16,159 nt of DNA from a virus (Duplodnaviria; Heunggongvirae; Uroviricota; Caudoviricetes). The notes beneath the pieces were generated by a model that saw only the letters and a list, made by a program, of their open reading frames with translations, had not been told where the DNA came from and did not search any database. Position numbers and translations under genes: made by a program. The stretch lies in IMG/VR virus record IMGVR_UViG_2690316131_000017. The stretch is one strand, 5' to 3'. Of this stretch, positions 1,462 to 16,159 are shown piece by piece; position 1 is the stretch's first letter, and each line of letters starts with the position of its first letter.

Positions 1462-1476
1462 ATATGCCCTTTTATC

Positions 1477-1566
1477 ACTACACCAGGTCAAGCCATTGAT
1501 TTAATTAAATAATTATCATTGAAAAAGTGCCAAAAATCGCAAATTGACTACACCATTAACTACACC
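1477..1566. repeat. three direct copies of ACTACACC (1477-1484, 1547-1554, 1559-1566)
   Basis: Read directly from sequence. Lies in the AT-rich junction between the phoQ stop and the first island gene; candidate recombination or arm-type site. Confidence 0.4.
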
Positions 1567-1582
1567 GTTCGGTGCACTGTAT

Positions 1583-1608
1583 GAAACAACGTGGAACAAA
1601 TAGACACA
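1583..1608 (+). promoter_or_regulatory. copy A of the AACAACGTGGAACAA motif (1585-1599) with a degenerate third AACAA box
   Basis: The 15-mer is identical to the one at 8980-8994 and one mismatch from the one at 14848-14862 (opposite strand). Confidence 0.45.
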
Positions 1609-1977
1609 AGAAATATACAGGCGGGTAATCTTTCCAGGGGGAAGCGCACCAATTCATGAGGGGCGTTAATGTCGATATGGGGATCCCCATAACGGGGCTA
1701 CCGGATTTTTTTCCGGTTAACATTTAATCAGGCTGGTGGGTTTTACATACCCTTGATCACCGTAATGATGATCCAGATGTGCACCTTTTCCACCAATGGC
1801 GGAAAAGCTCCAACCGTAACGATGATCGCTATGGTTGCCTCGATGGTCTGCGTGGTCATTATGACCATTCAGCCAGTGACCTTAATCAGAATTTTTCGCT
1901 AAAAAATGACGTTGGCCACGTCATCCTGATAGCACAAAATCACGTCGATTTTTAATGAACGGTTAAACCGTCTTTTT

Positions 1978-2012
1978 GTCACGGTGTGTCACTGGTTGTC
2001 ACTCTCCGTCAC
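1978..2012 (+). repeat. four GTCAC boxes at exactly 10-bp spacing (1978, 1988, 1998, 2008)
   Basis: Seen in sequence: gtcacggtgt gtcactggtt gtcactctcc gtcac. Helical phasing suggests cooperative protein binding, possibly integrase arm-type sites. Confidence 0.4.
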
Positions 2013-2126
2013 GATTGAGGTGGTGGTCATTCTGCCCGACCGCGCATTTTTGCGCTATCGGGAATATAAAACAGTTACCGCCGTCAGCTACCCAGCTCAG
2101 AATTGAGCCGCCTTTTAATCAACAAG

Positions 2127-2408
2127 TTACCGCCGTAACCGCTCCGGCTTCTTCCAGTGGTACGTGATTTTCTCCTTCTCCCGATACAGTTCAACGCGGC
2201 GATTGTAGGCCAGCATTTCCAGAACGCGGATCCGTATGTCGCGCATATCCGCATCATTAAGCTGGATACCATCACGGCGCATCACCTCAGCAACAACACG
2301 CGCATAATTTTCGGCTGTCACGCTGTCCGGCTGCGTGGTCTGTTCGTCAGCCTGCTGGCTGATTCCAGAGACGCGGCGGATTAATCGCAGTATTTCGGCT
2401 TCTGTCAT
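2127..2408 (-). CDS. hypothetical protein (93 aa), last gene of the island
   Basis: ATG at 2408 with a GAGG Shine-Dalgarno 6-9 nt upstream; sits 14 bp downstream of the TerL stop. No family recognised. Confidence 0.55.
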   Translation of the reverse strand: MTEAEILRLIRRVSGISQQADEQTTQPDSVTAENYARVVAEVMRRDGIQLNDADMRDIRIRVLEMLAYNRRVELYREKEKITYHWKKPERLRR

Positions 2409-2421
2409 GCTGCTGACCTCA

Positions 2422-4083
2422 TTACACCCCGCTAAATTCTTCCAGTTTCTGGCGGTGGCTGTCGCTTATATCAAAAGCAAAATCCTCATGCTCTGCCTGG
2501 AATGTACCAAACGCCATCAGCGCCGCCACGCTCGGGTCTATCTTGTTCGGTGATTTTTTCTTGTTCGGCTTGATATTGGCGTTCGCGTCACTCTGCATCA
2601 CGACGTTACTCATCGACCAGGACAACACCGGATCGCCACGATGCACAATCACCCTGCGGTTAACAAAAACTTCGAACGATTTCGCCGCCGGACTGAATCT
2701 GAGGTAGGTTTGCGGGAACGGCTCCACCTCAAAGCCTGCCCCCTGTAATTGCGTCCTGAGATGCGTGGCGTTCCACGTATCAAAGCCCACCAGCCTGATA
2801 TTAAATTTCTCCGCATCCTGCATGATGTCATCTCTGATCCGGTCGTAATCAATGCAGTCACCTGGCGTTGTGCGTATCCAGCCCGCTTTAGCCCACTGGC
2901 GATAGACAGCGCGGTTTTTATTGGCGGGGTTCTGTAGCTGGAACTCCGGCAGATAATGACGGGAAACCAGCATGATATTTTTACCGACCGGAAAGGCATA
3001 GCACACGCTGGAAATATCGCTGGTTGATGATAAGTCCAGCCCCGCGTAACACTCCTGCCCGTGTAAATCTTCCTCCGTGAACGTTCCGGCACACTCAGCC
3101 CATGCGCCGTTACCCATCCACGGGGTAGCCCCCTGGCACCAGATATTAAATCGCTTTGTCATCATCTCCACCCATTGCGACGGAATACCCCGCGCTTTCT
3201 GGATGGTTGAGGCCAGTTTTTCACGATCCACGGAAACATCGATGTTAGGGTTAGCCTTTATCCACATCGCCGGATCATCAACCTCGTTTTCGTCGTCCAG
3301 TTCGTAAATCAGTACAAAAATTGAATCGTTGACCTCTTCGCCGTCCAGGATCTGGCAGCAATAATCATAGTGCTGCTTACAGGCTGAAACGACGTTACTG
3401 CCCGATGTGGTAATGGCAAATAACAGCCCTTCGGGACGTGCGCCCATCCCCAGCTCAAGCGCGGAATAAACGCCGTTATCGGGGTGTAGGTGGTATTCGT
3501 CCACGATGGAAAGGCTTGGGTTTGTGCCCTCGATGGTTGCCGCTTTTGCTGCCAGCGGCTTTAACAGGCTGTTGCTTTTCGGGTGCATCACCTTGTGGGC
3601 CTGAATATTCACCCGCCTGCGTAACGGTCGGGATAAAAGGCACATCTGACGCGCATCATCAAAAACGATCCGCGCCTGGTCACGGCTCACCGCTGCGGTG
3701 TAAATATCCTGCTGCCCGTTCTCCATAATCAGAAACCAGTTAGCCAGAATCGCGGCGGTCGTGGATTTCGCATTTTTGCGCGGCACTTCGATAAAGGCGC
3801 TCGTGTATTTGCGCCGTCCGGTGGCCTTAACCTTAAAGCCGAGGATGCACGCAAAGGCGAACTGCTGCCACGGCTCCAGCTCAATGGGTCTGCCACGCAT
3901 CGGCCCTTTTACGTGCGGGCACACCCTGGAAAAGGCAATAAACCGCTCCACAACCTCACGATCGAACGTGTAAAGGGGGCTTTCAAGGTCCGAAAAGTAC
4001 CGTTTAACGGCCTGTTTCAGCCGTTTACAGGCCGGAATTTTGCCCGTTTTTACGTCTTCTGCGTACTTATTCCAGGCGGTCAA
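2422..4083 (-). CDS. terminase large subunit (HK97-type)
   Basis: 553 aa with an N-terminal ATPase P-loop-like segment (PRKNAKST) and a C-terminal nuclease-type region with acidic residues. The ORF-track start at 4083 is TTG with a GAGGA Shine-Dalgarno, overlapping the TerS 3' end by 17 nt. Confidence 0.88.
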   Translation of the reverse strand: MTAWNKYAEDVKTGKIPACKRLKQAVKRYFSDLESPLYTFDREVVERFIAFSRVCPHVKGPMRGRPIELEPWQQFAFACILGFKVKATGRRKYTSAFIEVPRKNAKSTTAAILANWFLIMENGQQDIYTAAVSRDQARIVFDDARQMCLLSRPLRRRVNIQAHKVMHPKSNSLLKPLAAKAATIEGTNPSLSIVDEYHLHPDNGVYSALELGMGARPEGLLFAITTSGSNVVSACKQHYDYCCQILDGEEVNDSIFVLIYELDDENEVDDPAMWIKANPNIDVSVDREKLASTIQKARGIPSQWVEMMTKRFNIWCQGATPWMGNGAWAECAGTFTEEDLHGQECYAGLDLSSTSDISSVCYAFPVGKNIMLVSRHYLPEFQLQNPANKNRAVYRQWAKAGWIRTTPGDCIDYDRIRDDIMQDAEKFNIRLVGFDTWNATHLRTQLQGAGFEVEPFPQTYLRFSPAAKSFEVFVNRRVIVHRGDPVLSWSMSNVVMQSDANANIKPNKKKSPNKIDPSVAALMAFGTFQAEHEDFAFDISDSHRQKLEEFSGV

Positions 4084-4423
4084 GCTCGTCCTCTTCTTCT
4101 GTTTCCGGTGGATTTTTACGGCGGCTTATCGGGTCAAAACCGAGCAAAGAGGCCATTTTTATCATCACTCTTTCAGCGTCGGATTTTGCGCTTAATGCGG
4201 GGTTTCTGCTCTCACCGCCCTGACTGTTAACAATGCTGAACCCGCGCGCCGCAAGGTCTGCAACGGCTTTCCGGTAAATGGAGTAGTTGACACAATACAG
4301 TTCCAGATTGCTCCAGTCGGCGGGGGTCAGGTCTCCCCGTTCCGCAAGCTGCCTAGATTTTTCCCGCCACTGCTTCACGGCGATATCATCCAGGTAGGCG
4401 GGGGCTTTCGGTGGTCTTGACAT
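4067..4423 (-). CDS. terminase small subunit, P27 family
   Basis: 118 aa; the pattern (LTPADWSNLELYCVNYSIYRKAVADL ... NPALSAKSDAERVMIKMASLLGFDPISRRK) is typical of P27-type TerS; acidic C-terminus. ATG at 4423. Confidence 0.85.
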   Translation of the reverse strand: MSRPPKAPAYLDDIAVKQWREKSRQLAERGDLTPADWSNLELYCVNYSIYRKAVADLAARGFSIVNSQGGESRNPALSAKSDAERVMIKMASLLGFDPISRRKNPPETEEEDELDRLE

Positions 4424-4546
4424 GCTTATTTTTTCGCCAGATTATTTTTCAAAAAATTCCCGTGCATAAAAATTTGAGGAGGCGTTCGGTGCCCGGCGGA
4501 GTCGGGTTTGTCCTGAAAACGCCCCCCACCCCGTCATACAGCCTCA
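4424..4546. other. candidate cos/packaging-site region upstream of TerS
   Basis: 123-bp non-coding gap between the HNH-side small ORF and TerS, containing a G/C-rich tract (aaaacgccccccaccccgtc). In HNH plus P27-TerS cos phages the cos site usually lies near terS. Position is inferred only. Confidence 0.3.
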
Positions 4547-4729
4547 TCAGCGATTGCGAAAACATTCCATAACCTCGCGGTCACGGTCGGTTAATCGCTT
4601 CGCTGTGATGCGTTCTGCGCGTCCTGACGCTTTATCTTTATGCCCTGTTTCCTGTGTCTTCCATGCGTCACGCTGCCTTATAAGTCCACGGATAAGGCGG
4701 TTTTGTTCCCGCTCATTCATCAGCGTCAT
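4547..4729 (-). CDS. small basic hypothetical protein (60 aa)
   Basis: ATG at 4727-4729 inside the longer track ORF 4547-4951, overlapping the HNH 3' end. Basic composition. Uncertain. Confidence 0.35.
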   Translation of the reverse strand: MTLMNEREQNRLIRGLIRQRDAWKTQETGHKDKASGRAERITAKRLTDRDREVMECFRNR

Positions 4730-5153
4730 ACATCCAGTTATTGCGGTTAGCGGCCCGTTCTTCCTCTGCACGAAATCCACCTGCGGCACGCTTGCTTTTT
4801 GTTGCCGGATCAAGCCATTTCGTTTTCTGGTTATGACACGCCTGGCACAATGGTTGATGGTTCCATTCGGGCCAGAAGAGAACATCATCACCGCCATTAA
4901 TCGGGATAATGTGATCCACCACCACGGCGGGCGTATATATCCCCTTCTCAAGGCATCGCACGCATAACGGGTTTTTACTCAGATACATGGCGCGGTATTT
5001 GTCCCACTGTCTGGAATATCCACGCGCGCGGCGGTGTCCTCGTCTGGCATCCTCTGCACGCCATGCCGCCCGCCTGTGCTCCTCACACTTGCCGGATTTA
5101 ACGCGCCTGTTACAGCCTGGTTCTGTGCATCGTCTTAATGGTTGCCACGGCAT
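4713..5153 (-). CDS. HNH endonuclease (terminase-associated)
   Basis: 146 aa with Cys-rich Zn-binding segments and an HNH core (DHIIPINGG ... NHQPLCQACHNQKT). ATG at 5153 overlaps the connector stop (ATGA). Confidence 0.85.
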   Translation of the reverse strand: MPWQPLRRCTEPGCNRRVKSGKCEEHRRAAWRAEDARRGHRRARGYSRQWDKYRAMYLSKNPLCVRCLEKGIYTPAVVVDHIIPINGGDDVLFWPEWNHQPLCQACHNQKTKWLDPATKSKRAAGGFRAEEERAANRNNWMYDADE

Positions 5154-5449
5154 CAGTACACCCCCACATCACGGTAAGCCGTCCAGAGTGCGCCAATCGT
5201 CATGGGTACGCGTGTTTTTGCGTTATCCGCGACAATCTGGCGATTCTCATACAGGTGAGCGATAAACATCATGCAGCCAATCTTTATGGCTGGCGTGAAC
5301 TCCAGCCCGTCATCAAAGCGCCTGCCTATGTGTATCTGGCACGCCTCAAGCGATGCGGCAATGTATCCGCTGATTAACTGGTCTTCCTCGTCTCCATCGA
5401 TACGGCAATGGAGTTTCACTTCTTCCAGGGTGATAAGTTCTTCTGTCAT
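5153..5449 (-). CDS. gp6-like head-tail connector protein
   Basis: 98 aa; N-terminal pattern (ITLEEVKLHCRIDGDEEDQLISGYIAASLEACQ) is typical of the gp6-like connector family. ATGA overlap with the upstream gene. Confidence 0.78.
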   Translation of the reverse strand: MTEELITLEEVKLHCRIDGDEEDQLISGYIAASLEACQIHIGRRFDDGLEFTPAIKIGCMMFIAHLYENRQIVADNAKTRVPMTIGALWTAYRDVGVY

Positions 5450-5784
5450 TTTTCCGCGCCCTCACGACAAAGAATTTCAAGGCGTGTCCTGGCGACATCC
5501 GGCAACGGCTGCCCGATGATATTCAGTACACGCCCCGCCAGCGGCCCCGTACTGACCTTTATCCGGCTGGTGGCGTTGATGTCCTTCCGGTACCGTATCC
5601 AGATCCTTACGGTACCAATCGCCAGCTCTGCGCCCGATGAAATGGCCTCCTTGCTGCTGATCATGTTCACGCTTGCCCAGAGTGTGTGACCGTCCTCCCA
5701 CGTTTCGAGTATTTCGCCCGTCATGGCTCTGGTCTGTTTCAGGGTCTGAATCGTTATCCTGTCACGCAGTCGCCCTATGTTCAT
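5446..5784 (-). CDS. phage head closure / head-tail adaptor protein
   Basis: Pattern RITIQ ... WASV ... IRYR ... ATSRI is typical of head-tail joining proteins. I prefer the ATG at 5784 (ATGA overlap with the portal stop) to the track start at 5826. Confidence 0.75.
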   Translation of the reverse strand: MNIGRLRDRITIQTLKQTRAMTGEILETWEDGHTLWASVNMISSKEAISSGAELAIGTVRIWIRYRKDINATSRIKVSTGPLAGRVLNIIGQPLPDVARTRLEILCREGAEK

Positions 5785-6992
5785 TCCGTTTTTTCTCCCT
5801 CGCTGATTTTTACTTCCTGTTTCCATGCCTGGCTGAACTCATCACCACCATCACGCGGTGACAGTCCTTCACGTTCGCGGGCTTCGTTCGGGCACATAAC
5901 GCCGGATTTGATGCCGCGCTCATAGGTGGCAAAGCGTTCGCCAGGTGTGGCCCGTAACAGGTCCGCGCTGTCAAACTCCACCTGATACCGGATACCAGGT
6001 ACAGGCGAGGCCACCAGCAGGGCGTTTTTTATCTGCTGCTCAAAGTTCGCCAGCCACGGGCGCATCGTCATGGTGAGAAATGCGCGGCTTGCCTCGCTGA
6101 AATTGCTGTAGGTGCTGTTGCTGTATTCCTGCAAAAAAATCGGCGAGACGTTGAACATTCGGGCGATGTCTTCAATGGTAAAGCGACGGGAGGCCAGCCA
6201 TTCAGCATCCTGATTACTCATGCCCAGCTGCTGATAGCTCATACCCCCTTCAAGGATGGGCGTTTTTCCGGCGTTTCTGGCCCCTTTGTAGCGTTCCAGT
6301 GCGGCTAATGCCTGTTTGCCCTTCACGCCGTCCAGCCATTCGCCTGACGTGATAACCCCTGCCGCCATCATGCCATCACGCATCACGCTCGCGCCGTGGC
6401 GTTGTTGGGCCAGCCCAAGCCCCAGCGATTCGCGGCAGATGGTTACAGGTGAGCGCCCCATAAAGCCGTCATCCGTGGAGTAACGAAGGTGAAGTACTTC
6501 CCACGGTAAATAGTTGTGGGTGTTTCCGGTGTAGGCGTCAGTGATGCAATAGCGCCAGTTGTGTTCTCCTGTCTGCTCCACGTTCACCGACTGCGGCGGG
6601 TAAGGATGTAAAGCCGCCGGAAAACCATCACGCCCCCACTGAATAACCGCATAAGCATTACCGTTTAACAGGCAGTGGCGGATCATCATTCGCTTAAACT
6701 AGTAGGGGGTTTGCCATGCGTTCGGGCGCTCGTTGAAGATGTGATCGACCGGATGAGAATCAAGCCACTCGCGGGCCTCCTTCCCCTTCTCATTGCGTAC
6801 CAGGTACAGGTAGCATGGCATAGTAGCCACCGCCTCAGAGATGACCGTAACGGCGTTCATGACGGCAGGCAGTGATTCCGCTGTCCCCGATGATACGTAC
6901 TCACCCGCCCCCGTGTTCGATGTGCCGGCCAGCGCCATAAATTCATCAAGCGTCATGCTGCGCTGCTCTTTTTTTCTTCTGAAAGGCCACAT
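5781..6992 (-). pseudogene. HK97-family portal protein interrupted by one in-frame TAG (codon 98, plus coordinates 6699-6701)
   Basis: Track ORFs 6699-6992 (97 aa, portal N-terminus AVMNAVTVISEAVATMPCYLY) and 5781-6689 (302 aa, portal core with FTIEDIARMFNVSP) are in the same frame, separated only by TAG and three sense codons. Combined length ~403 codons is portal-sized. Confidence 0.8.
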
Positions 6993-6993
6993 A

Positions 6994-7566
6994 TCACACC
7001 CCCGCTAAATCCGCCCACCAGCGGCGATTATCCGCACGCGGCATTTTTTCGGGGTGCTGCTCATACAGGGAACGGCGGGCCAGCTCCACGCCGGAATCGG
7101 GGTAAGCCGGTACCGATGTAACGGTAATTTCGTACAGTTCCGCCACCAGCACGGTGCGCACGCATGGATCTGTTGTGGTATCCCATACATCCTTACGGGA
7201 GCGAAAGCCAAAGCTCATGCCGGATATATCACCACGTTTAACCAGTTCGATAACGTCGCGCCCTGTACTGGTATCCGGTGGGGTCAGTTCAAAGCGTAAC
7301 CCTGTTTCATCCTCTTCCAGTTTCAGCGTGCCGGAACGGGTGCGCCCCAGTAACATACTGTGGTCATGCTCATACAGGCCGCGAACGTCATTACCCGCCG
7401 CAAGCCATTCAGTAAACGCCCCCCGCTGGAATTTTTCGTAAAACTCACCCCATAACAGTTCTGAAAGCTTATCCCAGCGAACAACGTAGCCTGTAAGCGT
7501 GTTGCTGCCGCTGGTGGTGATTTCCGATGACCGGATTTCCATACTCTTCATAATTTTTTCACCCAT
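6994..7566 (-). CDS. HK97-family prohead protease (S78-type)
   Basis: 190 aa; the pattern (GYVVRWDKLSE ... GAFTEWL ... HDHSMLLGRT ... GMSFGF ... SVPAYPDSGVE) matches the prohead protease family. Stop is 1 nt before the portal ATG. Confidence 0.85.
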   Translation of the reverse strand: MGEKIMKSMEIRSSEITTSGSNTLTGYVVRWDKLSELLWGEFYEKFQRGAFTEWLAAGNDVRGLYEHDHSMLLGRTRSGTLKLEEDETGLRFELTPPDTSTGRDVIELVKRGDISGMSFGFRSRKDVWDTTTDPCVRTVLVAELYEITVTSVPAYPDSGVELARRSLYEQHPEKMPRADNRRWWADLAGV

Positions 7567-7575
7567 AAAACACTA

Positions 7576-7595
7576 AAGGGGCTTTTAAGCCCCTT
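7576..7595 (-). terminator. stem-loop between the capsid and protease genes (AAGGGGCTT..AAGCCCCTT), candidate partial terminator
   Basis: 9-bp inverted repeat in the 39-bp capsid-protease gap, followed on the minus-strand RNA by a U-rich stretch (UAGUGUUUU). Confidence 0.4.
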
Positions 7596-7605
7596 CTGTA
7601 TGCTG

Positions 7606-8763
7606 TTAATCGTCGTCCTGTGGCAGTTCCAGAATCTTGATCGCGTTCGAATCCACCACGCCACCGCCTAAATATTTCTGCGTGAAAATTTTGATGAAGC
7701 CCGGCTCTGTGAGGTTGTCCGGTCTGGTGCGAACACCTGTTTCGTGATCAACAATGTAGTAACCGCGTTTGAAGTCACCCAGGGCAATAACGTTATCAGG
7801 CATAAACTCCAGATATTCGACCGGAAGGCCCAGCAACGTATCAGGATCACCCGCCTGTAAACGGTCACGCCAGATGTAATCACCGTTCGCGTTCTTCACC
7901 TTCTGGAGTTTTGCCGCCGTCGTGGAGTTAACCACCCAGACCGCGTTTTTGCGGTATTTTTTACGTAATGCAAATTTCAGGTCGATCAGCGGGTCCGCAG
8001 ATGTCCACGCCAGAGATTCGGAAGGTTTAATTACCTGCAACGTACCAAAATCACGCTCTTTGTCGTTCTTCTCTGCACGGGGTACGGATAAAAAGCCTTT
8101 TGCTTTTTTGTCACCGTCGCCCACAACCAGATCGCTTTCTTCGGTTTCCGTGAAGGTGTCGCCAATCTCGCCCGTCAGCCATGAAAGGATGTCCACATCG
8201 GAAAAATCCACGATTTCCTGTGTGGTGCGCGGGTACGCATAGACCGGATACAGCTTAATGCTCACCTCGTTAATCTGCGGGGTGCTGGTCTGTTCGCGTG
8301 CCTTACCCTCTTCACCGTGGTTAACGGTCGCACCGCCAGCGGAAACAAGCTGCTTAAACTCGTTGCTGCTGATTTTCTTCACGGTACAGATGCGGCGCAT
8401 GGTGGATTCATCCGCCAGCATTCGCATGATTTCGGTGTTCAGTTCGGGGATAACGGTATAACCACCATCAGCGGGAACGCCTGTACTTAATGCGCGGGTT
8501 TCACCCGTCAGAATGTAGTTTCGTAGTTCTGCGGGGTCAGTGGTCTGACTGCTTTTACCTGGCTTGCTGCGCTCTTCGTCTGCAATGGCTTCAAGGCGGG
8601 AAATGTCTTTATCGAGGGATTCAGCTTTAGCGCGTAATTCGTCAAATTTTGCGCCCTCAGCATCGTTAAGACTGCGGTTTTCTTTTTCAGCGTTCTCCAG
8701 CATGTCGCGCATCTGATTTTTAATGGCGGTTTTCTGCTGGCGTAATTCGATTATTCTCGGCAT
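7606..8763 (-). CDS. major capsid protein, HK97 fold, with N-terminal coiled-coil delta (scaffold) domain
   Basis: N-terminal ~100 aa is heptad-rich and charged, followed by an HK97-like capsid body. No separate scaffold gene. First ATG at 8763; the track ORF extends to a TTG at 8808. Confidence 0.85.
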   Translation of the reverse strand: MPRIIELRQQKTAIKNQMRDMLENAEKENRSLNDAEGAKFDELRAKAESLDKDISRLEAIADEERSKPGKSSQTTDPAELRNYILTGETRALSTGVPADGGYTVIPELNTEIMRMLADESTMRRICTVKKISSNEFKQLVSAGGATVNHGEEGKAREQTSTPQINEVSIKLYPVYAYPRTTQEIVDFSDVDILSWLTGEIGDTFTETEESDLVVGDGDKKAKGFLSVPRAEKNDKERDFGTLQVIKPSESLAWTSADPLIDLKFALRKKYRKNAVWVVNSTTAAKLQKVKNANGDYIWRDRLQAGDPDTLLGLPVEYLEFMPDNVIALGDFKRGYYIVDHETGVRTRPDNLTEPGFIKIFTQKYLGGGVVDSNAIKILELPQDDD

Positions 8764-8978
8764 AAAAAAAAGTCCTGGGGTTAAGTAAGGAACTCCAGGA
8801 CGCGGCAAACACTCAACCGTTTTTCATAAGGAAATCAGCAATCGCACCGATCGTTTTCCCGCCTGGTAATGAATATTGGCGAGCACATTAACAGGCGGGA
8901 AAGTGGCCCCAGCGTCCTGGCACCACGGGCGAGAATAATCATGATTCAGTTCGGGTAAAATATGCCGATCCGCTCAGT

Positions 8979-9008
8979 GAACAACGTGGAACAACCACGA
9001 ACAAATAA
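8979..9008 (+). promoter_or_regulatory. three 10-bp-phased AACAA boxes overlapping the -35 of the packaging-operon promoter
   Basis: GAACAACGTG GAACAACCAC GAACAAATAA. On the minus strand the proximal box (TTGTTC) sits 16 bp upstream of TATTTT (8957-8962), about 190 bp upstream of the capsid ATG. Confidence 0.5.
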
Positions 9009-9018
9009 TTTACAAAAA

Positions 9019-9046
9019 ATAACAAAAAGCCGGATTGCTCCGGCTG
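9019..9046 (-). terminator. intrinsic terminator (stem AGCCGGA/TCCGGCT, loop TTGC, U-tract on minus strand)
   Basis: Perfect 7-bp stem followed on the minus-strand RNA by UUUUUGUUAUUUUUU; 19 bp downstream of the stop of gene 9065-9289. Confidence 0.75.
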
Positions 9047-9064: not shown

Positions 9065-9289
9065 TCAGTCTCTGATCCCTTTCAGAAATTCTATCAATGC
9101 ATCTGTCTGTTCAGGATTTACTGCCAGCATTTCACCGGATAGCGCGCAACGAACAAAACCATGATGATCCTTTTCAATCAGCGCCCCCGTTTCCAGAAAT
9201 GCGCGGTAATCAGTGATATTCATCGTCTCCATGTTGTCAGCATGGTATTTATCACGCTGTTTAAGTATCTCATCAAATTTCATCGGCAT
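9065..9289 (-). CDS. hypothetical protein (74 aa) in a terminator-flanked cassette
   Basis: ATG at 9289 with a GAGGAA Shine-Dalgarno 8 nt upstream (the track ORF runs further up to 9367). No family recognised. Confidence 0.5.
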   Translation of the reverse strand: MPMKFDEILKQRDKYHADNMETMNITDYRAFLETGALIEKDHHGFVRCALSGEMLAVNPEQTDALIEFLKGIRD

Positions 9290-9373: not shown

Positions 9374-9399
9374 TCAAATGACGCAAAAAAAGCCGGATT
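9374..9399 (-). terminator. intrinsic terminator, near-identical copy of the one at 9019-9046
   Basis: Same 23-bp sequence aaaaagccggattgctccggctg; on the minus strand the stem-loop is followed by a U7 tract. Lies 32 bp downstream of ORF 9431-9592. Confidence 0.75.
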
Positions 9400-9430
9400 G
9401 CTCCGGCTGCGTGGTGTGGTTCTGATATTC

Positions 9431-9592
9431 CTACTCTGCTAATTTGCTCAGCCCCATGTCTGCGTAAGTGCGATTTACTGCATTTCTCAGGTCTGCGTAG
9501 TTCTCCGTTGGCGGCTCCGGTGTGCCCTTGCTGCTCTGTTTTACCTGCGGGTCGTCCACCAGCCGCCCGTAAGCGGCTATCTGTGCCGTCAT
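9431..9592 (-). CDS. hypothetical small protein (53 aa)
   Basis: Not in the ORF track (under 60 aa). ATG at 9590-9592 overlaps the stop of the upstream gene (ATGA); hand translation gives MTAQIAAYGRLVDDPQVKQSSKGTPEPPTENYADLRNAVNRTYADMGLSKLAE; TAG at 9431-9433. Confidence 0.35.
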   Translation of the reverse strand: MTAQIAAYGRLVDDPQVKQSSKGTPEPPTENYADLRNAVNRTYADMGLSKLAE

Positions 9593-9903
9593 AATTCCAC
9601 CTCTCCGGTTTTAACGTTGATGGTTGTTACCTGTTCCGCTTCGGCAATCTCCCGTTCTGTCAGCGTGGCAAAGTTTGCCGCCGCCGTGGTCATGAATGCG
9701 CTTATCAGGTCGGGATGTTCCTTCGCGTATCCTTCCCGCGTGTGGCGGTCTATCGTTCTGATTGCCACCTTTAAGGTGTGCTCAGTCATGTCTAACGCTT
9801 TATATTTTGGCTCTGTTCTGTCTCTGCGAATTTTGGTCATTTGTCGCCCCTGATTCATGTTTTCGGCTGGCATGTTTGTTAAGTGATTTTGATGTATGCG
9901 CAT
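9589..9903 (-). CDS. hypothetical protein (104 aa; alternative start at 9840 gives 83 aa)
   Basis: ATG at 9903 is preceded by a strong Shine-Dalgarno (GAGGGGGGTGA); an internal ATG at 9840 also has an AGGGG Shine-Dalgarno. First gene downstream of the ori. No family recognised. Confidence 0.5.
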   Translation of the reverse strand: MRIHQNHLTNMPAENMNQGRQMTKIRRDRTEPKYKALDMTEHTLKVAIRTIDRHTREGYAKEHPDLISAFMTTAAANFATLTEREIAEAEQVTTINVKTGEVEL

Positions 9904-9953
9904 TTATTTTCACCCCCCTCGTTTAAAAAGTTTTGAGTTGTGCCTCCCCCCCC

Positions 9954-10172
9954 TCTACCCATCTACCCGAATGCTCATCATGTCAGTAATGGCGCGGCTT
10001 TCAGCGGGTAGATAGCTTTTTTGGCTCCTCTACCTGCCGTCTACCCTGCTACCTGAAATTGATAAAATCAGGTAGAAGAGGTAGAGAGGTTTTATTAGCC
10101 TTCTACCTAGCCCTCCACCCACTTATCATGTTGAATAATATGCGTTTATCTCATTCAGGTAGATGGGGTAGA
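9954..10172. repeat. replication-origin iteron field: at least 11 copies of TCTACC(C/T) / GGTAGA in both orientations with AT-rich spacers
   Basis: Copies near 9954, 9962, 10006 (inverted), 10029, 10040, 10049, 10071 and 10080 (inverted), 10102, 10158 and 10166 (inverted). Immediately downstream of the primase stop at 10189; flanked by AT-rich tracts and a C8 homopolymer at 9946-9953. Confidence 0.65.
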
Positions 10173-10188
10173 GGGCTTTTACAAAAAA

Positions 10189-11943
10189 TTATAAAAACGC
10201 GTCACAATCATCCGTTGTAATTGCGTTGGTCTGCGTTACTCCCTTAACTTTCCGCGTAATATATTCATGTCCGTAAACTTTTGCCGCTGGCTTCATGGCC
10301 TTGCTGAACTCAGCCACGTTTAGCGGTTTGCTCCTGCCTGCGTATGCCATAAACGCCAGATAGACGCGGTAAAGGCTGTTCCTGGTCGTGTACTTCACTG
10401 AATCGCCACCGCCACCCATCATCAGGCCGCGCGCTTCCTCCAGAAAATTCAGGAACTGGCAAAACTCAATAACCGGATCCGTCTGTTGCTTTATTGCCAG
10501 TGCTTCATCACCGTCGCGCTGTTCCAGGAGTAAAGCCCGTGCCTTTTCAGGGTCGGCAAAGTTCGCCAGTAATCGGCGGATAATCACAGGGATTTCAGCC
10601 GCAATCTTTTCCGGTAGCTCCCTGTCTTTTTCGGCCTCACTGACGATATTGTCGAAACGGAAAATCACGCGACGACGTGCCACACCTCCGGCCCGTTCGG
10701 TGAATATCATCGGGTTGTTGTTGGTCGCCAGCACCACCGCCCTGATTACCGCCGTGAAACGCTTTTCATATTTCGGGTTAATTTCCACGGGGTCGCCGCC
10801 CGTGATTTTCTTGATGCCCGTTCCTTCGCCTGTATATTTCGGCTGGTCTGCCAGGACGATAAGACGACTCCCGACAACCTGCGCACGTCCACCAGCATCA
10901 TCAAGCGATGTCATCTCAGCGCTTACCGTGTTCTGTTTCCCTGCCAGAAGGCTGGCTATGTGTGTGAATGTACTTTTACCGCTCCCGCCGTCTCCGGTGG
11001 CCTCAATAAACATCTGCCAGTCGTACCGGTTCGCCATAATCATGTACAGCGCGGCACATATACGCATCATCTTGCGCGGGTCTTTTCCGGCTGCGTGCTC
11101 AAGCCATTTATGAAAGTTTGGCGCGTTGTCGCGGATATTCTCCCCTGGTGCTGGTGGCGTGTACTCAATGCCGTTATGCGTGGTGATCCAGTTCTCCGGC
11201 GTGTGCGGGGAAAATTCCCCCGTTTTCAGGTCAAGCACACCATTGGCGAACGGCAGCAAATCGCCGGACGGTTCGCCCATTGGTTCGGCAATAACTTTTA
11301 ACGCTTCCACGGTGTTATTGATTACGCGCTTGCTGAAAGTGGCCCTGTGCTCTGAATAGATCGCCACCATTTCGCGGCTCAGTGCCATTGTGCTGACCGG
11401 ACACCATACCCCGCCGCGCCATACGTGAACGATTTCACTTTCAGGATGTACGCAAACGCCATCAAAGCGCCCGGCAAGCAGCTGCGCGCGCTCACTGTCC
11501 GCCATCTGCGAAAGTTGCGCCTTTTGCTTTACCGGAAGCTCAATGACCAGACCATCAGAAAGATTCTGGCGCTCACGGGCCAGATATTCGCGCCAGTTCT
11601 CCACCTCCTGAACGTGCATTCCCTCAGGGTAAAAATTTGCATCCTGTACACCTGCCGCCGCCAGCTTCTGACCAATCGCCTTTATCATTACAGGCTCAAG
11701 ATGTCCGGCCCTGAATATGCGTACTGATTTTCGGCCTTCCGGCACAATTTGCAGCTTATCCAGTTCGGATAACTGCTGCTCCCCAAGCCACACAGGAGGC
11801 TCATTATCTCCGGCCATACGCGCGTCATGTTCCTGCCATTGTTTTGCGTGTGACCAGGCATCACTACCCGCAAAAATAATGACTTCTGTTTCTTTGTGTT
11901 TTATGCCGCGTGACTGCTGTTTTACGTTCGGTGCCAGTTTCAT
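10189..11943 (-). CDS. P4-family primase/helicase (replication initiator)
   Basis: 584 aa with a Walker A P-loop (GDGGSGKST) in a D5/P4-type helicase region preceded by a primase-like N-terminal domain. ATG at 11943 overlaps the upstream stop (ATGA). Adjacent to the iteron ori. Confidence 0.88.
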   Translation of the reverse strand: MKLAPNVKQQSRGIKHKETEVIIFAGSDAWSHAKQWQEHDARMAGDNEPPVWLGEQQLSELDKLQIVPEGRKSVRIFRAGHLEPVMIKAIGQKLAAAGVQDANFYPEGMHVQEVENWREYLARERQNLSDGLVIELPVKQKAQLSQMADSERAQLLAGRFDGVCVHPESEIVHVWRGGVWCPVSTMALSREMVAIYSEHRATFSKRVINNTVEALKVIAEPMGEPSGDLLPFANGVLDLKTGEFSPHTPENWITTHNGIEYTPPAPGENIRDNAPNFHKWLEHAAGKDPRKMMRICAALYMIMANRYDWQMFIEATGDGGSGKSTFTHIASLLAGKQNTVSAEMTSLDDAGGRAQVVGSRLIVLADQPKYTGEGTGIKKITGGDPVEINPKYEKRFTAVIRAVVLATNNNPMIFTERAGGVARRRVIFRFDNIVSEAEKDRELPEKIAAEIPVIIRRLLANFADPEKARALLLEQRDGDEALAIKQQTDPVIEFCQFLNFLEEARGLMMGGGGDSVKYTTRNSLYRVYLAFMAYAGRSKPLNVAEFSKAMKPAAKVYGHEYITRKVKGVTQTNAITTDDCDAFL

Positions 11944-12239
11944 TTTTTACCCCTGAATCCGTTAATCATGGTTTTCAGCTTCTGGATGTTTGCCCGTGCC
12001 CTGGCGTTGCTGGTGGGCACGTTATGCGGCGCGGTCTGTACCAGAGAAAAATCACGCCGGAACTGATAAACAGGCATCACGCAATCATATTCGTAACCTT
12101 CACGGCGGTAAGTTACGCACCGTCCCGCCACGCCCTTAATCATTACCGTGCCGCCGTACTGGTCGCGGTAAATATCGCCGCGCGTAAATTTAGGGTGAGT
12201 GTTGCCACTGGCAGTTAAGCCAGAATATTTAAGTTTCAT
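11940..12239 (-). CDS. hypothetical protein (99 aa)
   Basis: ATG at 12239 with a GGAGAA Shine-Dalgarno; translationally coupled to the primase. No family recognised. Confidence 0.55.
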   Translation of the reverse strand: MKLKYSGLTASGNTHPKFTRGDIYRDQYGGTVMIKGVAGRCVTYRREGYEYDCVMPVYQFRRDFSLVQTAPHNVPTSNARARANIQKLKTMINGFRGKK

Positions 12240-12244
12240 TATTT

Positions 12245-12478
12245 TTATTCTCCGGTGTGCTGTTCTTTATATCTGTCGTGCAATAGATCTATTTCTTGCA
12301 GTTCCATTATTACAGGCTCAAGAAGCGTTATTAATGCCGTGGCAATTCTTGATTTTTGTTTGTCGCGTTCATTGTCGCCAAGTGTTTCAAGCCATATGCG
12401 CAATATTTCCAGCATGTTTTCACTGTGAGAAAGTGCAAGAAATGCGCGGTCTATTGTTTCGAGGTAAATATCACGCAT
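12245..12478 (-). CDS. hypothetical protein (77 aa)
   Basis: ATG at 12478 overlaps the upstream stop by 8 nt (ATGCGTGA); begins MRD. Confidence 0.5.
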   Translation of the reverse strand: MRDIYLETIDRAFLALSHSENMLEILRIWLETLGDNERDKQKSRIATALITLLEPVIMELQEIDLLHDRYKEQHTGE

Positions 12479-12704
12479 GGCTTACATCCTCAGGAAATTT
12501 TCTTCTGTAACGCGCCTCTGCCACATATTCCGCATAATCGGCGGCGATATTCAGTACATCAAGCCCCGTTGATTTATATTCTCTCGTGGAAAGTAAGAAA
12601 AAAGCCGCTCTAATAAGTTCTGGCATTGACGAAAGCGCATCAGCCGCATCATCAGGAACGCCGGAAAATTCCTGTTTCAGGGAATTAAAACGATCATCAC
12701 GCAT
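12471..12704 (-). CDS. hypothetical protein (77 aa from internal ATG; track ORF to 12731)
   Basis: ATG at 12704 is preceded by a GGGGGG Shine-Dalgarno and overlaps the upstream stop by 8 nt with the same ATGCGTGA junction; also begins MRD. Confidence 0.45.
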   Translation of the reverse strand: MRDDRFNSLKQEFSGVPDDAADALSSMPELIRAAFFLLSTREYKSTGLDVLNIAADYAEYVAEARYRRKFPEDVSHA

Positions 12705-12936
12705 AACCCCCCCCATTTTCACAATCAGCAATCAGGATGGCTTTGGCCTCATTCAGCGCCATATCCGCACTAAGTTGCATAACCGCCAGCGAATGAGGAA
12801 CGAAAGCCCCGGCATATTCTGTTTCACTGGTGGCGTGCTTATGCGCCCTGTCAGCAATAACAGAAATATCAATAAGCGCGTGCATCAGCGTAGTGAGCGC
12901 GGCGGCAGCTGCGTCCGGACGGATGTTATTGCACAT
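12697..12936 (-). CDS. hypothetical protein (79 aa from internal ATG; track ORF to 12993)
   Basis: ATG at 12936 is preceded by a GGAGGGG Shine-Dalgarno. Ala-rich. Confidence 0.45.
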   Translation of the reverse strand: MCNNIRPDAAAAALTTLMHALIDISVIADRAHKHATSETEYAGAFVPHSLAVMQLSADMALNEAKAILIADCENGGGYA

Positions 12937-13159
12937 GGTGTACCCCTCCGCATTTTTTTTCGTTAGAAATAAGCGTTCTTCTTTCCTGTTCATCGCTCAG
13001 GAATACGCAGACCTCACCGCTAAGGCGTTTAAGTAAGCCGATGATTGCCCCTGATTCGCTGTCGGTCATCATGCCAGGGTAATCCTCTGCCAGTGCGCAA
13101 ATGACTTCGATTTGGTGGGCGCGTTCTGCTGCCTGTTGTAGTGTGATTTCCTGGCTCAT
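12926..13159 (-). CDS. hypothetical protein (77 aa from internal ATG; track ORF to 13225)
   Basis: ATG (MSQEIT...) overlaps the stop of the upstream gene (ATGA). Coordinates follow the ORF-track frame. Confidence 0.45.
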   Translation of the reverse strand: MSQEITLQQAAERAHQIEVICALAEDYPGMMTDSESGAIIGLLKRLSGEVCVFLSDEQERRTLISNEKKCGGVHHVQ

Positions 13160-13356
13160 AAGCCTACCCCCTGACGAATACGGGCGGCGAATACCATCAC
13201 GCAGCCAGCCGGAGATTGCTGGCATGCTTCCTGTTCGCTGGTGGCCTCAATGGTAATCACGCGCGGTTGTGCCGTGCTCAGGGCGATAAAACGCCAGATG
13301 TATTTATTCAGGTTGTGCGAGTCCCGCCCTTGCGGGTGTGTGGTATGATTTCTCAT
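13156..13356 (-). CDS. hypothetical protein (66 aa), first gene of the leftward early operon
   Basis: C-terminal 66 codons of the 387-aa track ORF. ATG at 13354-13356 with a GAGGT Shine-Dalgarno, directly downstream of the operator-bearing promoter. The rest of the long ORF is judged spurious. Confidence 0.4.
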   Translation of the reverse strand: MRNHTTHPQGRDSHNLNKYIWRFIALSTAQPRVITIEATSEQEACQQSPAGCVMVFAARIRQGVGL

Positions 13357-13453
13357 AGCTACCTCGATACTTTCGCTATCGTTGGTGGTTAGACGCCCTG
13401 CATGTGTTGCGAGCACTGCGGGGCGTTGCTTAATTTGAGTGACAAAACTCAAA

Positions 13454-13540
13454 CTGTGCGCACAGATTAAAATCATGTGTGCGCACATGTCAATACTTAA
13501 CATCTCATTTTTTTTGCTGTATTGTGTGCGCCCATAAAGT
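13454..13540. promoter_or_regulatory. divergent promoter/operator switch with TGTGCGCACA palindromes
   Basis: Perfect 12-bp palindrome CTGTGCGCACAG (13454-13465), 10-bp palindrome TGTGCGCACA (13478-13487) and a half-site TGTGCGC (about 13525-13531). Leftward promoter read on the minus strand: TTGACA (13488-13493), 16-bp spacer, TTTAAT (13466-13471). Candidate rightward promoter TTGCTG / TAAAGT. Confidence 0.55.
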
Positions 13541-13561
13541 CCATTTAAGTGAGGTGCATCA

Positions 13562-13759
13562 ATGTCTAGCGGTAACACAAACAACAAATCAGCAAAGAAA
13601 AATATTCGATTCCCGCATGAGCTTATAGATGGGATTGATGCCAGCGTTGAACAAGAAAAATTAACTAATCCTAGTGCTAATTTTTCCGCATGGGTCTTAG
13701 ATGCCTGTGGACGCAAATTAAAATATGAACAGCGCCGGAAGGCCAAAGAATCAGAATAA
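13562..13759 (+). CDS. small DNA-binding-like protein (65 aa), candidate island repressor; possibly YlcI/YnfO-like
   Basis: ATG at 13562 with a GTGAGGTG Shine-Dalgarno. The segment KKNIRFPHELIDGIDASVEQE ... NFSAWVLDACGRKL has a strand-helix-helix pattern suggestive of a ribbon-helix-helix fold. The YlcI/YnfO (DUF3950) resemblance is from memory and unverified. Confidence 0.55.
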   Translation: MSSGNTNNKSAKKNIRFPHELIDGIDASVEQEKLTNPSANFSAWVLDACGRKLKYEQRRKAKESE

Positions 13760-13816
13760 TCACTATCAGCGCCGTGGTGTGAGGAACTACGGCGCATTTC
13801 TTTACAGGAGTAGACA

Positions 13817-14002
13817 ATGAACAACGAAGAATTACGGGAAATCGCATTATCCATACTTGAAAGACAGGTAGAAAAAAAATTAAGAGAAATGGATGAAATG
13901 CCTGACCATGAACAGGAAGCAAGGCCAAAAAGATTTGCCCTTGAGGATTTTCTTAAAAATTGCCCAAGAAAGATGAGATCGTGGCGTTGTTGTCCGCCCT
14001 GA
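13817..14002 (+). CDS. hypothetical protein (61 aa)
   Basis: ATG at 13817 with a GGAG Shine-Dalgarno; co-directional with the upstream gene and followed by a strong terminator. Confidence 0.5.
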   Translation: MNNEELREIALSILERQVEKKLREMDEMPDHEQEARPKRFALEDFLKNCPRKMRSWRCCPP

Positions 14003-14079
14003 TGACAGATTTGCCAACCAGCCAAAAATGTGGCATCGTTGTCGATACATAGTGTAATCAACATGTATATCATATTTTT

Positions 14080-14106
14080 GCGACCATCATAGGTCGCATT
14101 TTTTTT
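14080..14106 (+). terminator. intrinsic terminator (GCGACC-atcata-GGTCGC followed by T8)
   Basis: Perfect 6-bp GC-rich stem followed by an 8-T run; about 80 bp downstream of the plus-strand gene pair. Confidence 0.7.
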
Positions 14107-14376
14107 GCCTGTAATCCGGCAATTGTGGCGCTTCTTCACACAGTTGATATAATTCCAATGCTCATATTTATTTTTTGTGCAGCAGGTTAATCGTTCACAA
14201 AGGCGCTCAGGTAACTGGGCGCTTTTTGTTATGCCTGAAAAACCCCAATTTTGTTGTTTTTCAGTTTCACCAGGGCGAACGAATCCCCGCCTACGTTCTG
14301 GCGTATATTCAATCTTCATGGTTATAGCTCTGTGTTCAGATGATTGATGTGTGGCGGCTGCGTGCCGCCAGCGTGA

Positions 14377-14565
14377 TTAATGAACTGCCTTGCAGCTATC
14401 CTTCCAGGCCAGAACCTCGGATAAAGACCAGCCAACGGAACGACCGCCAAGTTTACGACGTGATGGGAATTGTCCGGCCTTTTCCAGGCGGTAGCGACAC
14501 GTACGGCTAAGGCCGGTTAGTTTTTCGCATTCTTTTTCACGTATAAACCGATCAGTGCTTAACAC
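14377..14565 (-). CDS. alpA: AlpA-family transcriptional regulator / excisionase-like protein
   Basis: 62 aa; the motif LTGLSRTCRYRLEKAGQFPSRRKLGGRSVGWSLSEVLAW matches the AlpA/excisionase winged-helix family. GTG start at 14565 with an AAGGGGG Shine-Dalgarno 5 nt upstream. Confidence 0.8.
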   Translation of the reverse strand: MLSTDRFIREKECEKLTGLSRTCRYRLEKAGQFPSRRKLGGRSVGWSLSEVLAWKDSCKAVH

Positions 14566-14837
14566 TATTGCCCCCTTTCGTTTCTTAAAGAGTCATCAGG
14601 TGTCTTATTGTGTCGTATTGTTCCCGCTAGAGTGATAAATGGCAAATACTGAGGATGTATGATTTACAGAAAATGAAACAGTAAGAATAAAATCTTTTAA
14701 ATTCACGTTAATACAAAGGCATAAAATATTGTTTCATGCCTTTTTTCTCGCTCTTTAAAGAGTGATTCGCTAGTGTATAAAAAACCAGTAACGCATTAAA
14801 AATCAGCCACTTATAAATCCGTACGCTTTTTCGCCTC

Positions 14838-14912
14838 TTGTTCGTAGTTGTTCCACATTGTTGCTCATTGTTGCACGTTGTATCTGTTCGCATATACAGT
14901 ATGCGCATACTG
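14838..14912. promoter_or_regulatory. five tandem 10-bp units beginning TTGTT (14838-14887) plus a 16-bp perfect palindrome CAGTATGCGCATACTG (14897-14912)
   Basis: Units TTGTTCGTAG, TTGTTCCACA, TTGTTGCTCA, TTGTTGCACG, TTGTATCTGT at exact 10-bp period. The second unit pair equals the 15-mer motif with one mismatch. Lies between the int stop (14930) and the alpA start. Confidence 0.5.
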
Positions 14913-14929
14913 AAAAAACACGAAAAAAA

Positions 14930-16159
14930 TTATTTTCTTCTGGCTACTGGTAGCGTGGTTACGTTTTCATGTGTTCCCGCCAGTATCCCTAACCGCTCCG
15001 TCCACATATCCAGCGCATTGCGTTTAGCATCCAGATAACGGGAATGATTATAAACTCGCTGCATTCCTGGCATCTGGTGGCCTGTAAGCTGCTCCACGAC
15101 GTGAGAATCCACGCCTAAATCGTTCAGCATCGTTGTAAAGGTGCGCCGGATGTCATGTAGTGACCAGTGAGGGTGATTTAGCCTCCTGTGCGCTAATCTG
15201 CCGTACTGCGACACGCTTGTTTCCTGTTTCACTTCCCCCAGCAATAAACCCGTGTGCCTGTTCTGCTCCACCAGCTGCGTGACGAACGGCAGTATTGCTT
15301 CCGGTATGGGCCGGAATATTGCCACCTTCGTTTTGCTGTGTTCTTTCGGCACGGTCCAGAGCATTTCGGTAAAATCCCACTCGCTGATCTCCGATAACCT
15401 CAGTTCTACCGTCCGGCATCCGAACACAATCAGGAGGCGGATTAGCGCGATGTAGTAGGGGGAGAATATTTTTTTGTCCAGTGCCTGCAATAATTCGCCA
15501 AGTTCTTTGTTGCTTAAGACACGCTCGCTTATATCCGGTTTTTTCCCAACGTCCGCCACACTCATATCATCAAGAACGTTGCTGATTGCATAGCGCCGCT
15601 TCCGGCAGAACTTAAGCGCCTGCTTGCATGTCTGTAGCAGGAACCCGGCGGAAACAGGGGCTTGCTTTGCCACCCGATCAAAACAGGCCAGCCAGTGCCG
15701 TAGCTCGCATTTATCCAGCGGCATAGGGCCAATGTGCTGTATTACGTGATTATTTAGCCGCTTTTTCAGTGGGTCATAATCCACACGGTTTTCCTTTGCG
15801 TACGACTCAAGCCAGTAGGTGAGCGTATCACCAACCGTTACCGGCTTTAACGCTTCCTGTACGGTGTAATTCATCTCATGACGTGGATTTTTCCCCTCAG
15901 CCAGCCATGCGCGACACTGGGCGGCTTTTTCCCTGGCTGATTTCAGACTCAGATCAGGATAATTTCCCAGCTTAATGCGTTCCGGTGGTGCCCCCCTTCC
16001 CGTTCCGGCCCTGTAAGTGAAATACCAGGTTAAAAGGCCGCTGGTTGAATGCCTGACGCTCAGATTTCCACCGTCATTAAGAAAGGCTGTTTTTTGGGCG
16101 GGTGTGCCGTTGATTTTCCTTAGCAGTGTATCGCTCAGTTTGTTAAGTGCTCTGCTCAT
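14930..16159 (-). CDS. tyrosine integrase with N-terminal arm-binding (DUF4102-like) domain
   Basis: 409 aa. N-terminal arm-binding-type pattern (LSDTLLRKI ... LNDGGNLSV ... WYFTYR ... IKLGNYPDLSLKSAREKA) and a C-terminal catalytic region with R..HxxR..Y-type residues (HDIRRTF ... HSRY). The ATG is the last 3 nt of the window, so the upstream region and att site are not visible. Confidence 0.9.
   Translation of the reverse strand: MSRALNKLSDTLLRKINGTPAQKTAFLNDGGNLSVRHSTSGLLTWYFTYRAGTGRGAPPERIKLGNYPDLSLKSAREKAAQCRAWLAEGKNPRHEMNYTVQEALKPVTVGDTLTYWLESYAKENRVDYDPLKKRLNNHVIQHIGPMPLDKCELRHWLACFDRVAKQAPVSAGFLLQTCKQALKFCRKRRYAISNVLDDMSVADVGKKPDISERVLSNKELGELLQALDKKIFSPYYIALIRLLIVFGCRTVELRLSEISEWDFTEMLWTVPKEHSKTKVAIFRPIPEAILPFVTQLVEQNRHTGLLLGEVKQETSVSQYGRLAHRRLNHPHWSLHDIRRTFTTMLNDLGVDSHVVEQLTGHQMPGMQRVYNHSRYLDAKRNALDMWTERLGILAGTHENVTTLPVARRK

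Follow-up and report, generated by a model that had tools for sequence, protein, structure and literature searches.

The window analyzed here, meaning the whole stretch of 16,159 nucleotides, opens with phoQ and continues into an island that has a copy of an imperfect 10-bp repeat, AAATATG(C/T)CC, at either end, with ~14.9 kb between the two cores. The core at the phoQ-side junction (AAATATGCCC, positions 1460 to 1469) overlaps the phoQ stop codon, in agreement with the insertion 3' of phoQ claimed by an earlier sequence-only reading of this DNA, and its partner (AAATATGTCC) lies ~172 to 181 bp past the window end, at the equivalent of positions 16331 to 16340, adjoining roxA. The repeat was found at both junctions by comparison with the empty phoQ-roxA site of K-12, a search which that reading had suggested, and with the roxA-side junction in contigs L001 and L008. 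The element goes ~180 bp past the window and thus beyond the extent previously given for it (1462 to 16159). Three ACTACACC repeats on the plus strand (1476 to 1566), with two further copies just past 16159, are likely integrase arm-type sites. Contig L008 contains the whole window with 0 mismatches in 16,159 bases and reaches roxA ~250 bp past the integrase, and contig L004, identical to the window across 11,230 bases, continues through roxA into pepT, potA, and potB. Host genes therefore adjoin both att junctions, and no tail or lysis genes were found in the att-bounded segment of L008. The absence of such genes had been claimed for the window as well, and indeed the tail and lysis families of PHROG and Pfam gave no match to any ORF scanned. 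Rfam searches of the whole window at gathering thresholds and of positions 12900 to 15000 at permissive thresholds returned nothing credible, including no C4/CI-like immunity RNA.

For all listed genes from the integrase to the large terminase subunit, which are encoded on the minus strand, there is profile support from Pfam, PHROG, and NCBIfam, and the gene set named beforehand (integrase, AlpA, P4-type primase, and a head and packaging set) was recovered in full. The closest characterized counterpart is EcCIEDL933, the prototype capsid-forming PICI (cf-PICI), from E. coli O157:H7 EDL933 (Alqurainy et al., 2022 preprint; He et al., 2025 preprint). The 385-aa HK97-fold major capsid protein (7606 to 8763; Phage_capsid, E = 2e-61) includes an N-terminal scaffold (delta) region, bearing out the fused delta domain proposed for it, and matches the solved structure PDB 9GYI at 383 of 385 residues (99.5% versus EcCIEDL933). 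Its SxGxxAD motif begins at residue 93, and residues D257, K290, D295, E319, and R345 are present, both as reported for EcCIEDL933. There follow an HK97-family prohead protease (6994 to 7566; Peptidase_S78, E = 4e-48; 98.9% identical to EcCIEDL933) and, identified by profile searches, an HK97-type portal gene with an in-frame TAG (5781 to 6992; 98.8% identical to EcCIEDL933), a head closure protein (5446 to 5784; 100% identical to EDL933), a gp6-like head-tail connector, or adaptor (5153 to 5449; 100% identical to EDL933), and an HNH endonuclease (4713 to 5153; 98.6% identical to EcCIEDL933), with the connector/closure pair matching Phage_connect_1 and Phage_HCP in Pfam. A 60-aa hypothetical protein (4547 to 4729; phrog_3173; 100% identical in EDL933) is by position the counterpart of EcCIEDL933 gene 1792. 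The adjacent segment (4424 to 4546, minus strand) is a putative cos region, as suggested by its position and by the motif GGGGTGGGGGGCGTTTTCAGGAC (4532 to 4510), which matches the end sequence of LR881103.1, a linear record. The operon is completed by a P27-family terminase small subunit, likewise found by profile searches (4067 to 4423; 99.2% identical to EcCIEDL933), the terminase large subunit (2422 to 4083; TerL_ATPase and TerL_nuclease; phrog_9; 98.4% identical to EDL933), and, 3' of terL, a conserved hypothetical gene (2127 to 2408, minus strand; phrog_1561; 93.5% identical in EDL933). The resulting order, capsid-protease-portal, differs from the portal-protease-capsid order of HK97-like phages, as had been pointed out from the sequence.

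The minus strand also encodes a DUF4222 protein (11940 to 12239) and a 584-aa P4-family primase/helicase (10189 to 11943; D5_N, DUF5906, and Pox_D5, with TIGR01613 above its cut-off). Adjacent to the latter is an iteron-like cluster (9944 to 10181) of 10 RGGTAGA copies in both orientations, followed on the minus strand by a 104-aa hypothetical protein (9589 to 9903; phrog_1231), a fused ssb'-'perC remnant (9431 to 9592) that resulted from a 505-bp deletion, and a 74-aa hypothetical protein (9065 to 9289; phrog_1957). The same two partial genes, ssb and perC, are flagged by PGAP in MFDS1006657. The assignment of the primase to the P4 type holds at the level of the family, but similarity to P4 alpha is limited to residues 141 to 573, at 40.6% identity, and Pfam, even with E values up to 10 allowed, showed no domain in the N-terminal 165 residues of the replicase. 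Ten of the 12 RGGTAGA matches of the window fall within 9954 to 10172, directly past the primase stop codon, and none of 200 shuffles attained 12 matches; the iterons previously noticed beside the primase are thus clustered far above chance and presumably mark the replication origin.

The tyrosine integrase (14930 to 16159; Arm-DNA-bind_3 and Phage_integrase; phrog_1; 96.8% identical to EDL933) occupies one end of the island, and next to it lies the AlpA regulator/excisionase (14377 to 14565; Phage_AlpA, E = 5e-17; 100% identical to EDL933). Farther along the minus strand are a long Icd-like ORF of 387 aa (13156 to 14319), with the family domain in its last ~90 residues, and four small overlapping hypothetical genes called in L008 (12245 to 13159; phrog_2196, 2512, 5146, and 1478), while a DUF3950/YlcI-YnfO family gene (13562 to 13759) runs on the plus strand, antisense to the Icd-like ORF. 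The odd composition of the 387-aa ORF could suggest an artefact, but ~1,900 relatives are present in databases, many under the name Icd-like, and it stays open through unrelated sequence cassettes.

All 11 cf-PICI core components of SatelliteFinder are present in the island, the portal gene with its in-frame TAG among them, and neither of the forbidden components (tail and holin) was found in it; the remaining sequence-level features by which the published work recognizes a cf-PICI, among them a size of about 10 to 15 kb and att repeats at a dedicated site, are likewise there. With high confidence, we interpret the window as phoQ plus, next to it, a cf-PICI of 14.9 kb that belongs to the EcCIEDL933 lineage, has retained its packaging module, has a different replicase, and is probably immobilized by the portal amber codon. 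The core genes, size, att repeats, and kinship to EcCIEDL933 all fit the capsid-forming PICI proposed earlier, and a capsid-forming satellite was thus correctly recognized by a reader who had the raw sequence alone. The novelty implied at the time does not hold, because the cf-PICI family, its unusual gene order, and tail-only piracy were published between 2022 and 2025, and the biology of this kind of island, including its structural characterization, is already known.

The functionality implied by the sequence-only reading is likewise called into question, by a portal codon that it overlooked. At positions 6699 to 6701, codon 98 of the portal gene is an in-frame TAG in place of the CAG (Gln) found in four intact relatives, and the split gene recurs in several independent assemblies from different sequencing runs. 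In published work, mutation of the portal abolished transfer of EcCIEDL933, and because portal mutants of the prototype cannot transfer, the present copy is probably immobile. That the island is instead fully functional, with a suppressor tRNA, readthrough, or a restart at a downstream ATG pair overcoming the amber codon, appears improbable to us. In its favor, the rest of the packaging genes are intact, with near identity to those of the working prototype, and the mutated Gln codon could be restored exactly by a glnV-type suppressor, but amber suppressors are rare in natural isolates. The supE suppressor inserts Gln, so amber suppression would restore the wild-type residue 98, and low-level readthrough of the TAG could allow some portal synthesis. 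Two ATG codons are available four codons past the stop, and an exact look-up matched the 301-aa portal fragment that starts at the second of them but found no match for the 302-aa version; a restart product would, however, lack the first ~100 residues, which form part of the portal profile. The same copy moreover has the ssb-perC deletion as a second lesion. Besides the amber codon and this 505-bp deletion, the sequence-only reading had also missed that the replication module is unlike that of the prototype.

Equally doubtful are two further ideas, namely, that the amber-portal, ssb-perC-deleted copy is kept for a role other than transfer, e.g., helper response and interference, and, separately, that the Icd-like ORF is a translated regulatory leader joining alpA to the downstream genes.

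Far less credible is a decayed HK97-like prophage that was stripped of its tail and lysis genes and never was a satellite. Head and packaging genes of phage type would fit this view, as would the two lesions, which show decay under way, but 52 complete genomes have an island of the same size and tail-less architecture at the same site, and 407 (~7.5% of complete E. coli genomes) carry the packaging module. Host genes adjoin both att junctions, which are clean, and the near-identical island of EDL933 is a tail-stealing satellite by experiment. A known phage is ruled out, since among 50,697 phage records searched by megablast none covers more than 13% of the island. Just as hard to reconcile with the island is a satellite that remodels helper capsids, be it P4-like or a classical PICI. 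The island does have int and alpA as well as a P4-family primase/helicase and an Icd-like gene, but it also encodes its own capsid, protease, portal, connectors, and TerL, the markers that separate cf-PICIs from PICIs and the grounds on which the sequence-only reading had rightly set both classes aside, while the Sid, Psu, and Delta families, whose genes define P4-like satellites, were not found among the ORFs scanned with Pfam and PHROG.

An EcCIEDL933-lineage cf-PICI would have the following life cycle, most steps of which are taken from the published model. The island would integrate, by means of its own tyrosine integrase, at the 10-bp core that overlaps the stop codon of phoQ, and a helper phage would switch on alpA, upon which the island would excise and replicate from its own origin. 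The packaging operon would then supply capsid protein, protease, and portal for small T=4 capsids of the HK97 fold; HNH, TerS, and TerL would cut and package island DNA at the cos site; the closure and connector proteins would dock tails from a helper such as HK106; and the particles would be released by the lysis genes of the helper. The present copy retains the int, alpA, and packaging module of the prototype, together with a different, P4-alpha-like replicase that has its own iterons. Judged from its gene content, excision and replication are probably still within its reach, whereas assembly of packaging-competent capsids probably is not, and it is therefore likely a recently inactivated, vertically inherited copy; the inactivation, if real, would be recent because the remaining packaging operon is intact. 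Such a natural portal knock-out in the lineage of the prototype island offers a ready-made control for transfer experiments.

Compared with EcCIEDL933, the present island occupies the same phoQ-roxA site in the same orientation and has the packaging genes in the same order, with proteins 98.4 to 100% identical. The two differ in the replicase, a 710-aa DUF927 protein in EcCIEDL933 versus the 584-aa P4-alpha-like protein here, which align over the first 163 residues only, at 82%; in most of the small genes that separate alpA from the replicase; in ssb and perC, here cut to the fused remnant; in the portal, with its amber codon; and in size (~14.9 kb versus 15.4 kb). According to the published EcCIEDL933 work, transfer requires each packaging gene, the portal included; tails are supplied by the helper, with compatibility determined by the adaptor and connector; alpA is required for induction; and none of the 17 EDL933 prophages serves as a helper for the prototype. 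Excision and replication upon helper induction, self-made small capsids, and transfer by means of borrowed tails were shown in those experiments for the prototype only, which they established as a tail-stealing satellite. Islands with the same architecture and site, all with an intact portal, occur in the other E. coli genomes RM6927, MFDS1006657, and O157:H7 strain 2571. The first two have the same primase type as the present island, and MFDS1006657 also has the ssb-perC deletion in common and a packaging module that is 99.8% identical, whereas strain 2571 has a RepA-type helicase in place of the P4-type primase. The island thus exchanges replicase types while its packaging module and insertion site stay constant.

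Among more distant systems, the classical Gram-negative PICIs (EcCICFT073 and EcCIED1a) have the int, alpA, and replication layout in common with the present island and are induced in a helper-dependent manner via alpA, as described in the literature, but they lack the portal, connectors, and TerL that are all present here and rely on helper capsid proteins. In the SatelliteFinder model for PICIs, portal, head-tail connector, and adaptor are forbidden components, and the island has genes for all three. P4 shares a tyrosine integrase and an alpha-like helicase/origin-binding region but lacks genes for capsid, portal, and terminase, and P2 capsids are instead resized by Sid. HK97 and the helper HK106 share the HK97-fold capsid with its delta domain, the S78 protease, the HK97-type portal, and HNH-dependent cos packaging, whereas the present island has no tail/lysis module, and the cf-PICI capsid is reported in the literature as T=4 rather than T=7. 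Finally, LR881103.1, "Escherichia phage vB_KppS-Ant" (16.5 kb, from an induced prophage), a distant relative deposited as a phage, has the same circular gene order, with TerS/TerL DNA ~78% identical, a primase 40.7% identical, and, past TerL, a 765-aa gene labelled tape measure in the record's own annotation.

PhoQ occupies 1-1461 of the window; from ~1470 to the window end runs a single gene block, with almost every gene on the minus strand. This block includes a tyrosine integrase (14930-16159, minus), AlpA (14377-14565, minus), an Icd-like long open reading frame of 387 aa (13156-14319, minus) with a DUF3950 gene antisense inside it (13562-13759, plus), and a 584-aa primase/helicase (10189-11943, minus), with four small hypothetical genes and a DUF4222 gene between the Icd-like frame and the primase/helicase. 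Three small genes separate the latter from the capsid gene, after which the packaging genes run in the order prohead protease, portal, head closure, gp6-like connector, HNH, a 60-aa gene, TerS, TerL, and a 93-aa gene. Strong Pfam, PHROGs, and NCBIfam scores were obtained for each assignment, and the gene list of the sequence-only reading is therefore correct; profiles also upheld the HK97 type of the capsid, protease, and portal, the P27 type of TerS, and the P4 family of the primase.

The empty K-12 site reads ...GAATAAATATGCCC|ATACTTCACG..., and the window matches it up to ATATGCCC at 1469 and diverges thereafter. Two public contigs matched the window with 0 mismatches, L008 over all 16,159 bases and L004 across 11,230 bases. 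Together they place AAATATGTCC|ATACTTCACG 172-181 bp beyond the start of the integrase gene, with roxA, pepT, potA, and potB next in line; on the other side, the island is adjoined by phoQ, phoP, and purB. Given this position of the att core, the island measures ~14.9 kb and extends slightly past the window end; a 10-bp repeat, whose two copies differ at one position, bounds it. The extent of 1462-16159 proposed earlier falls short on the integrase side. Copies of the ACTACACC repeat, probable arm sites of the integrase, occur within both island ends. Tail or lysis genes close beyond 16159 had been named as evidence against a satellite; none lie there in L008 or L004, host genes being found instead. 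At 45-1471 of L004, ~7-8 kb from the island, an NleB-type effector gene and the C-terminal piece of a tail-fibre gene were observed; the four housekeeping genes from roxA to potB stand between, and the pair belongs to another locus, of prophage or effector type, as is also the case in EDL933.

In EDL933, an island with the layout of the window lies between roxA and phoQ and fits the published 15.4-kb EcCIEDL933, the prototype capsid-forming PICI (cf-PICI), including its gene numbers (capsid, 1786; small gene between HNH and TerS, 1792). Comparison of the window proteins with those of EDL933 gave identities of 100% for AlpA, head closure, and connector, 99.5% for the capsid, 99.2% for TerS, 98.9% for the protease, 98.8% for the portal, 98.6% for HNH, 98.4% for TerL, and 96.8% for the integrase. 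The capsid protein equals PDB 9GYI at 383 of 385 residues, both differences being those from the EDL933 protein, and it keeps the capsid residues and maturation motif described for EcCIEDL933 (He et al.). Layout, site, and protein identities all support the earlier interpretation as a cf-PICI, and the island, as judged from its sequence, represents a variant form of the prototype. Among 5,426 complete E. coli genomes, 52 have 80% or more of the window at the phoQ-roxA site, and 407 (7.5%) have 80% or more of the packaging module.

The portal frame carries an in-frame TAG at 6699-6701 (CAG to TAG, Gln98), which cuts the gene into pieces of 97 and 302 codons. Three features escaped the sequence-only reading: this amber codon, an ssb-perC deletion, and a replicase unlike that of the prototype. 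The 403-aa portal is intact in EDL933, RM6927, O157:H7 strain 2571, and MFDS1006657, and codon 98 was read as CAG in the first three. Since the split gene was found in contigs of two NCBI assemblies and in separate sequencing runs, the amber codon is a real inherited mutation; it is also recent, because the MFDS1006657 packaging module is 99.8% identical to that of the window and has an intact portal. This copy is most likely a recently disabled satellite that would no longer build working capsids. Confidence is high in the overall explanation, a cf-PICI of the EcCIEDL933 lineage that was probably disabled recently, and somewhat lower in the immobility of this copy.

The mechanism is taken from the literature on the prototype, the window's copy being known from sequence alone. 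EcCIEDL933 is induced via alpA by helper phages HK106 and HK446, and its transfer requires each packaging gene. Its small capsids (T=4) are built from island proteins, with the helper supplying tails only; DNA-filled tail-less capsids are released and are able to join free tails, whose fit is set by the adaptor and connector. Because head closure and connector are identical to those of the prototype, HK106-type tails would be the expected partners of the window's island. The gap that separates the 60-aa gene from terS probably holds the cos site, a tentative placement. LR881103.1, a distant relative and a linear record of 16.5 kb, starts 22 nt before its own terS, and its last bases are the G-rich motif GGGGTGGGGGGCGTTTTCAGGAC, which occurs in the window in the gap between the 60-aa gene and terS (4532-4510, minus strand) and is a candidate cos element. 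This record is named 'Escherichia phage vB_KppS-Ant' and has a cf-PICI layout; a 765-aa gene after its TerL (2036-4333) is labelled in the record as a tape measure protein.

The possibly translated 387-aa frame 3' of alpA is open far longer than expected by chance (0 of 2,000 shuffles) and odd in composition, being rich in Cys, Ser, and Arg with an Icd-like domain at its end. It is matched by ~1,900 database proteins, many named Icd-like. In related islands the frames start alike, differ in the middle, and stay open through unrelated middle cassettes; among eight aligned relatives only the ends are conserved, the interior being a block mosaic. The antisense DUF3950 gene is well supported, and a further antisense stretch was observed at 13817-14002 (plus). 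A 53-aa frame at 9431-9592, with an SSB-like start and a PerC-like end, joins the first ~25 codons of ssb to the last ~30 of a perC-like gene; the fusion is explained by the loss of 505 bp compared with the O157:H7 island, and NCBI annotates the same pair of partial genes in MFDS1006657. Non-coding short tandem repeats with ~10-bp spacing lie near the phoQ-side end (1976-2013, TTGTCAC type), upstream of the capsid gene (8975-9010, GTTGTTC type), and in the int-alpA gap (14848-14881, TTGTTGCACA repeated 3.4 times); all three arrays may be regulator binding sites. Two identical terminator-like hairpins on the minus strand, AGCCGGAGCAATCCGGCT followed by a T run, sit after the perC remnant (9391-9408) and after a 74-aa gene (9028-9045), and a 17-nt inverted repeat (8855-8902) immediately precedes the capsid gene, which together suggest independent transcription of the packaging operon.

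An iteron origin by the primase had also been proposed. The repeat cluster stands: of 12 RGGTAGA sites in the window, 10 lie, in both orientations, in the 240 bp that follow the stop codon of the primase gene, and 0 of 200 shuffles reached 12. Its role as a replication origin would follow from its position and from the behavior of P4-type replicases. Nothing is new about the class: SatelliteFinder yielded 969 cf-PICIs, carried by 13% of Enterobacteriaceae genomes, the gene order was already remarked as unusual in the first paper, and exchange of replication modules among satellite families has been published. In its replicase, the window differs from both EcCIEDL933, which has a DUF927 protein (4238-6370 of the EDL933 locus), and O157:H7 strain 2571, which has a RepA helicase (13315-14712 of its locus). 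The P4-alpha-like, DUF927, and RepA replicases occupy the same island position and have in common only their N-terminal 125-163 residues, a stretch without a Pfam domain, a pattern that suggests cassette exchange of replicases at a fixed junction. Similarity to P4 alpha (40.6% identity) is confined to residues 141-573 of the window's replicase.
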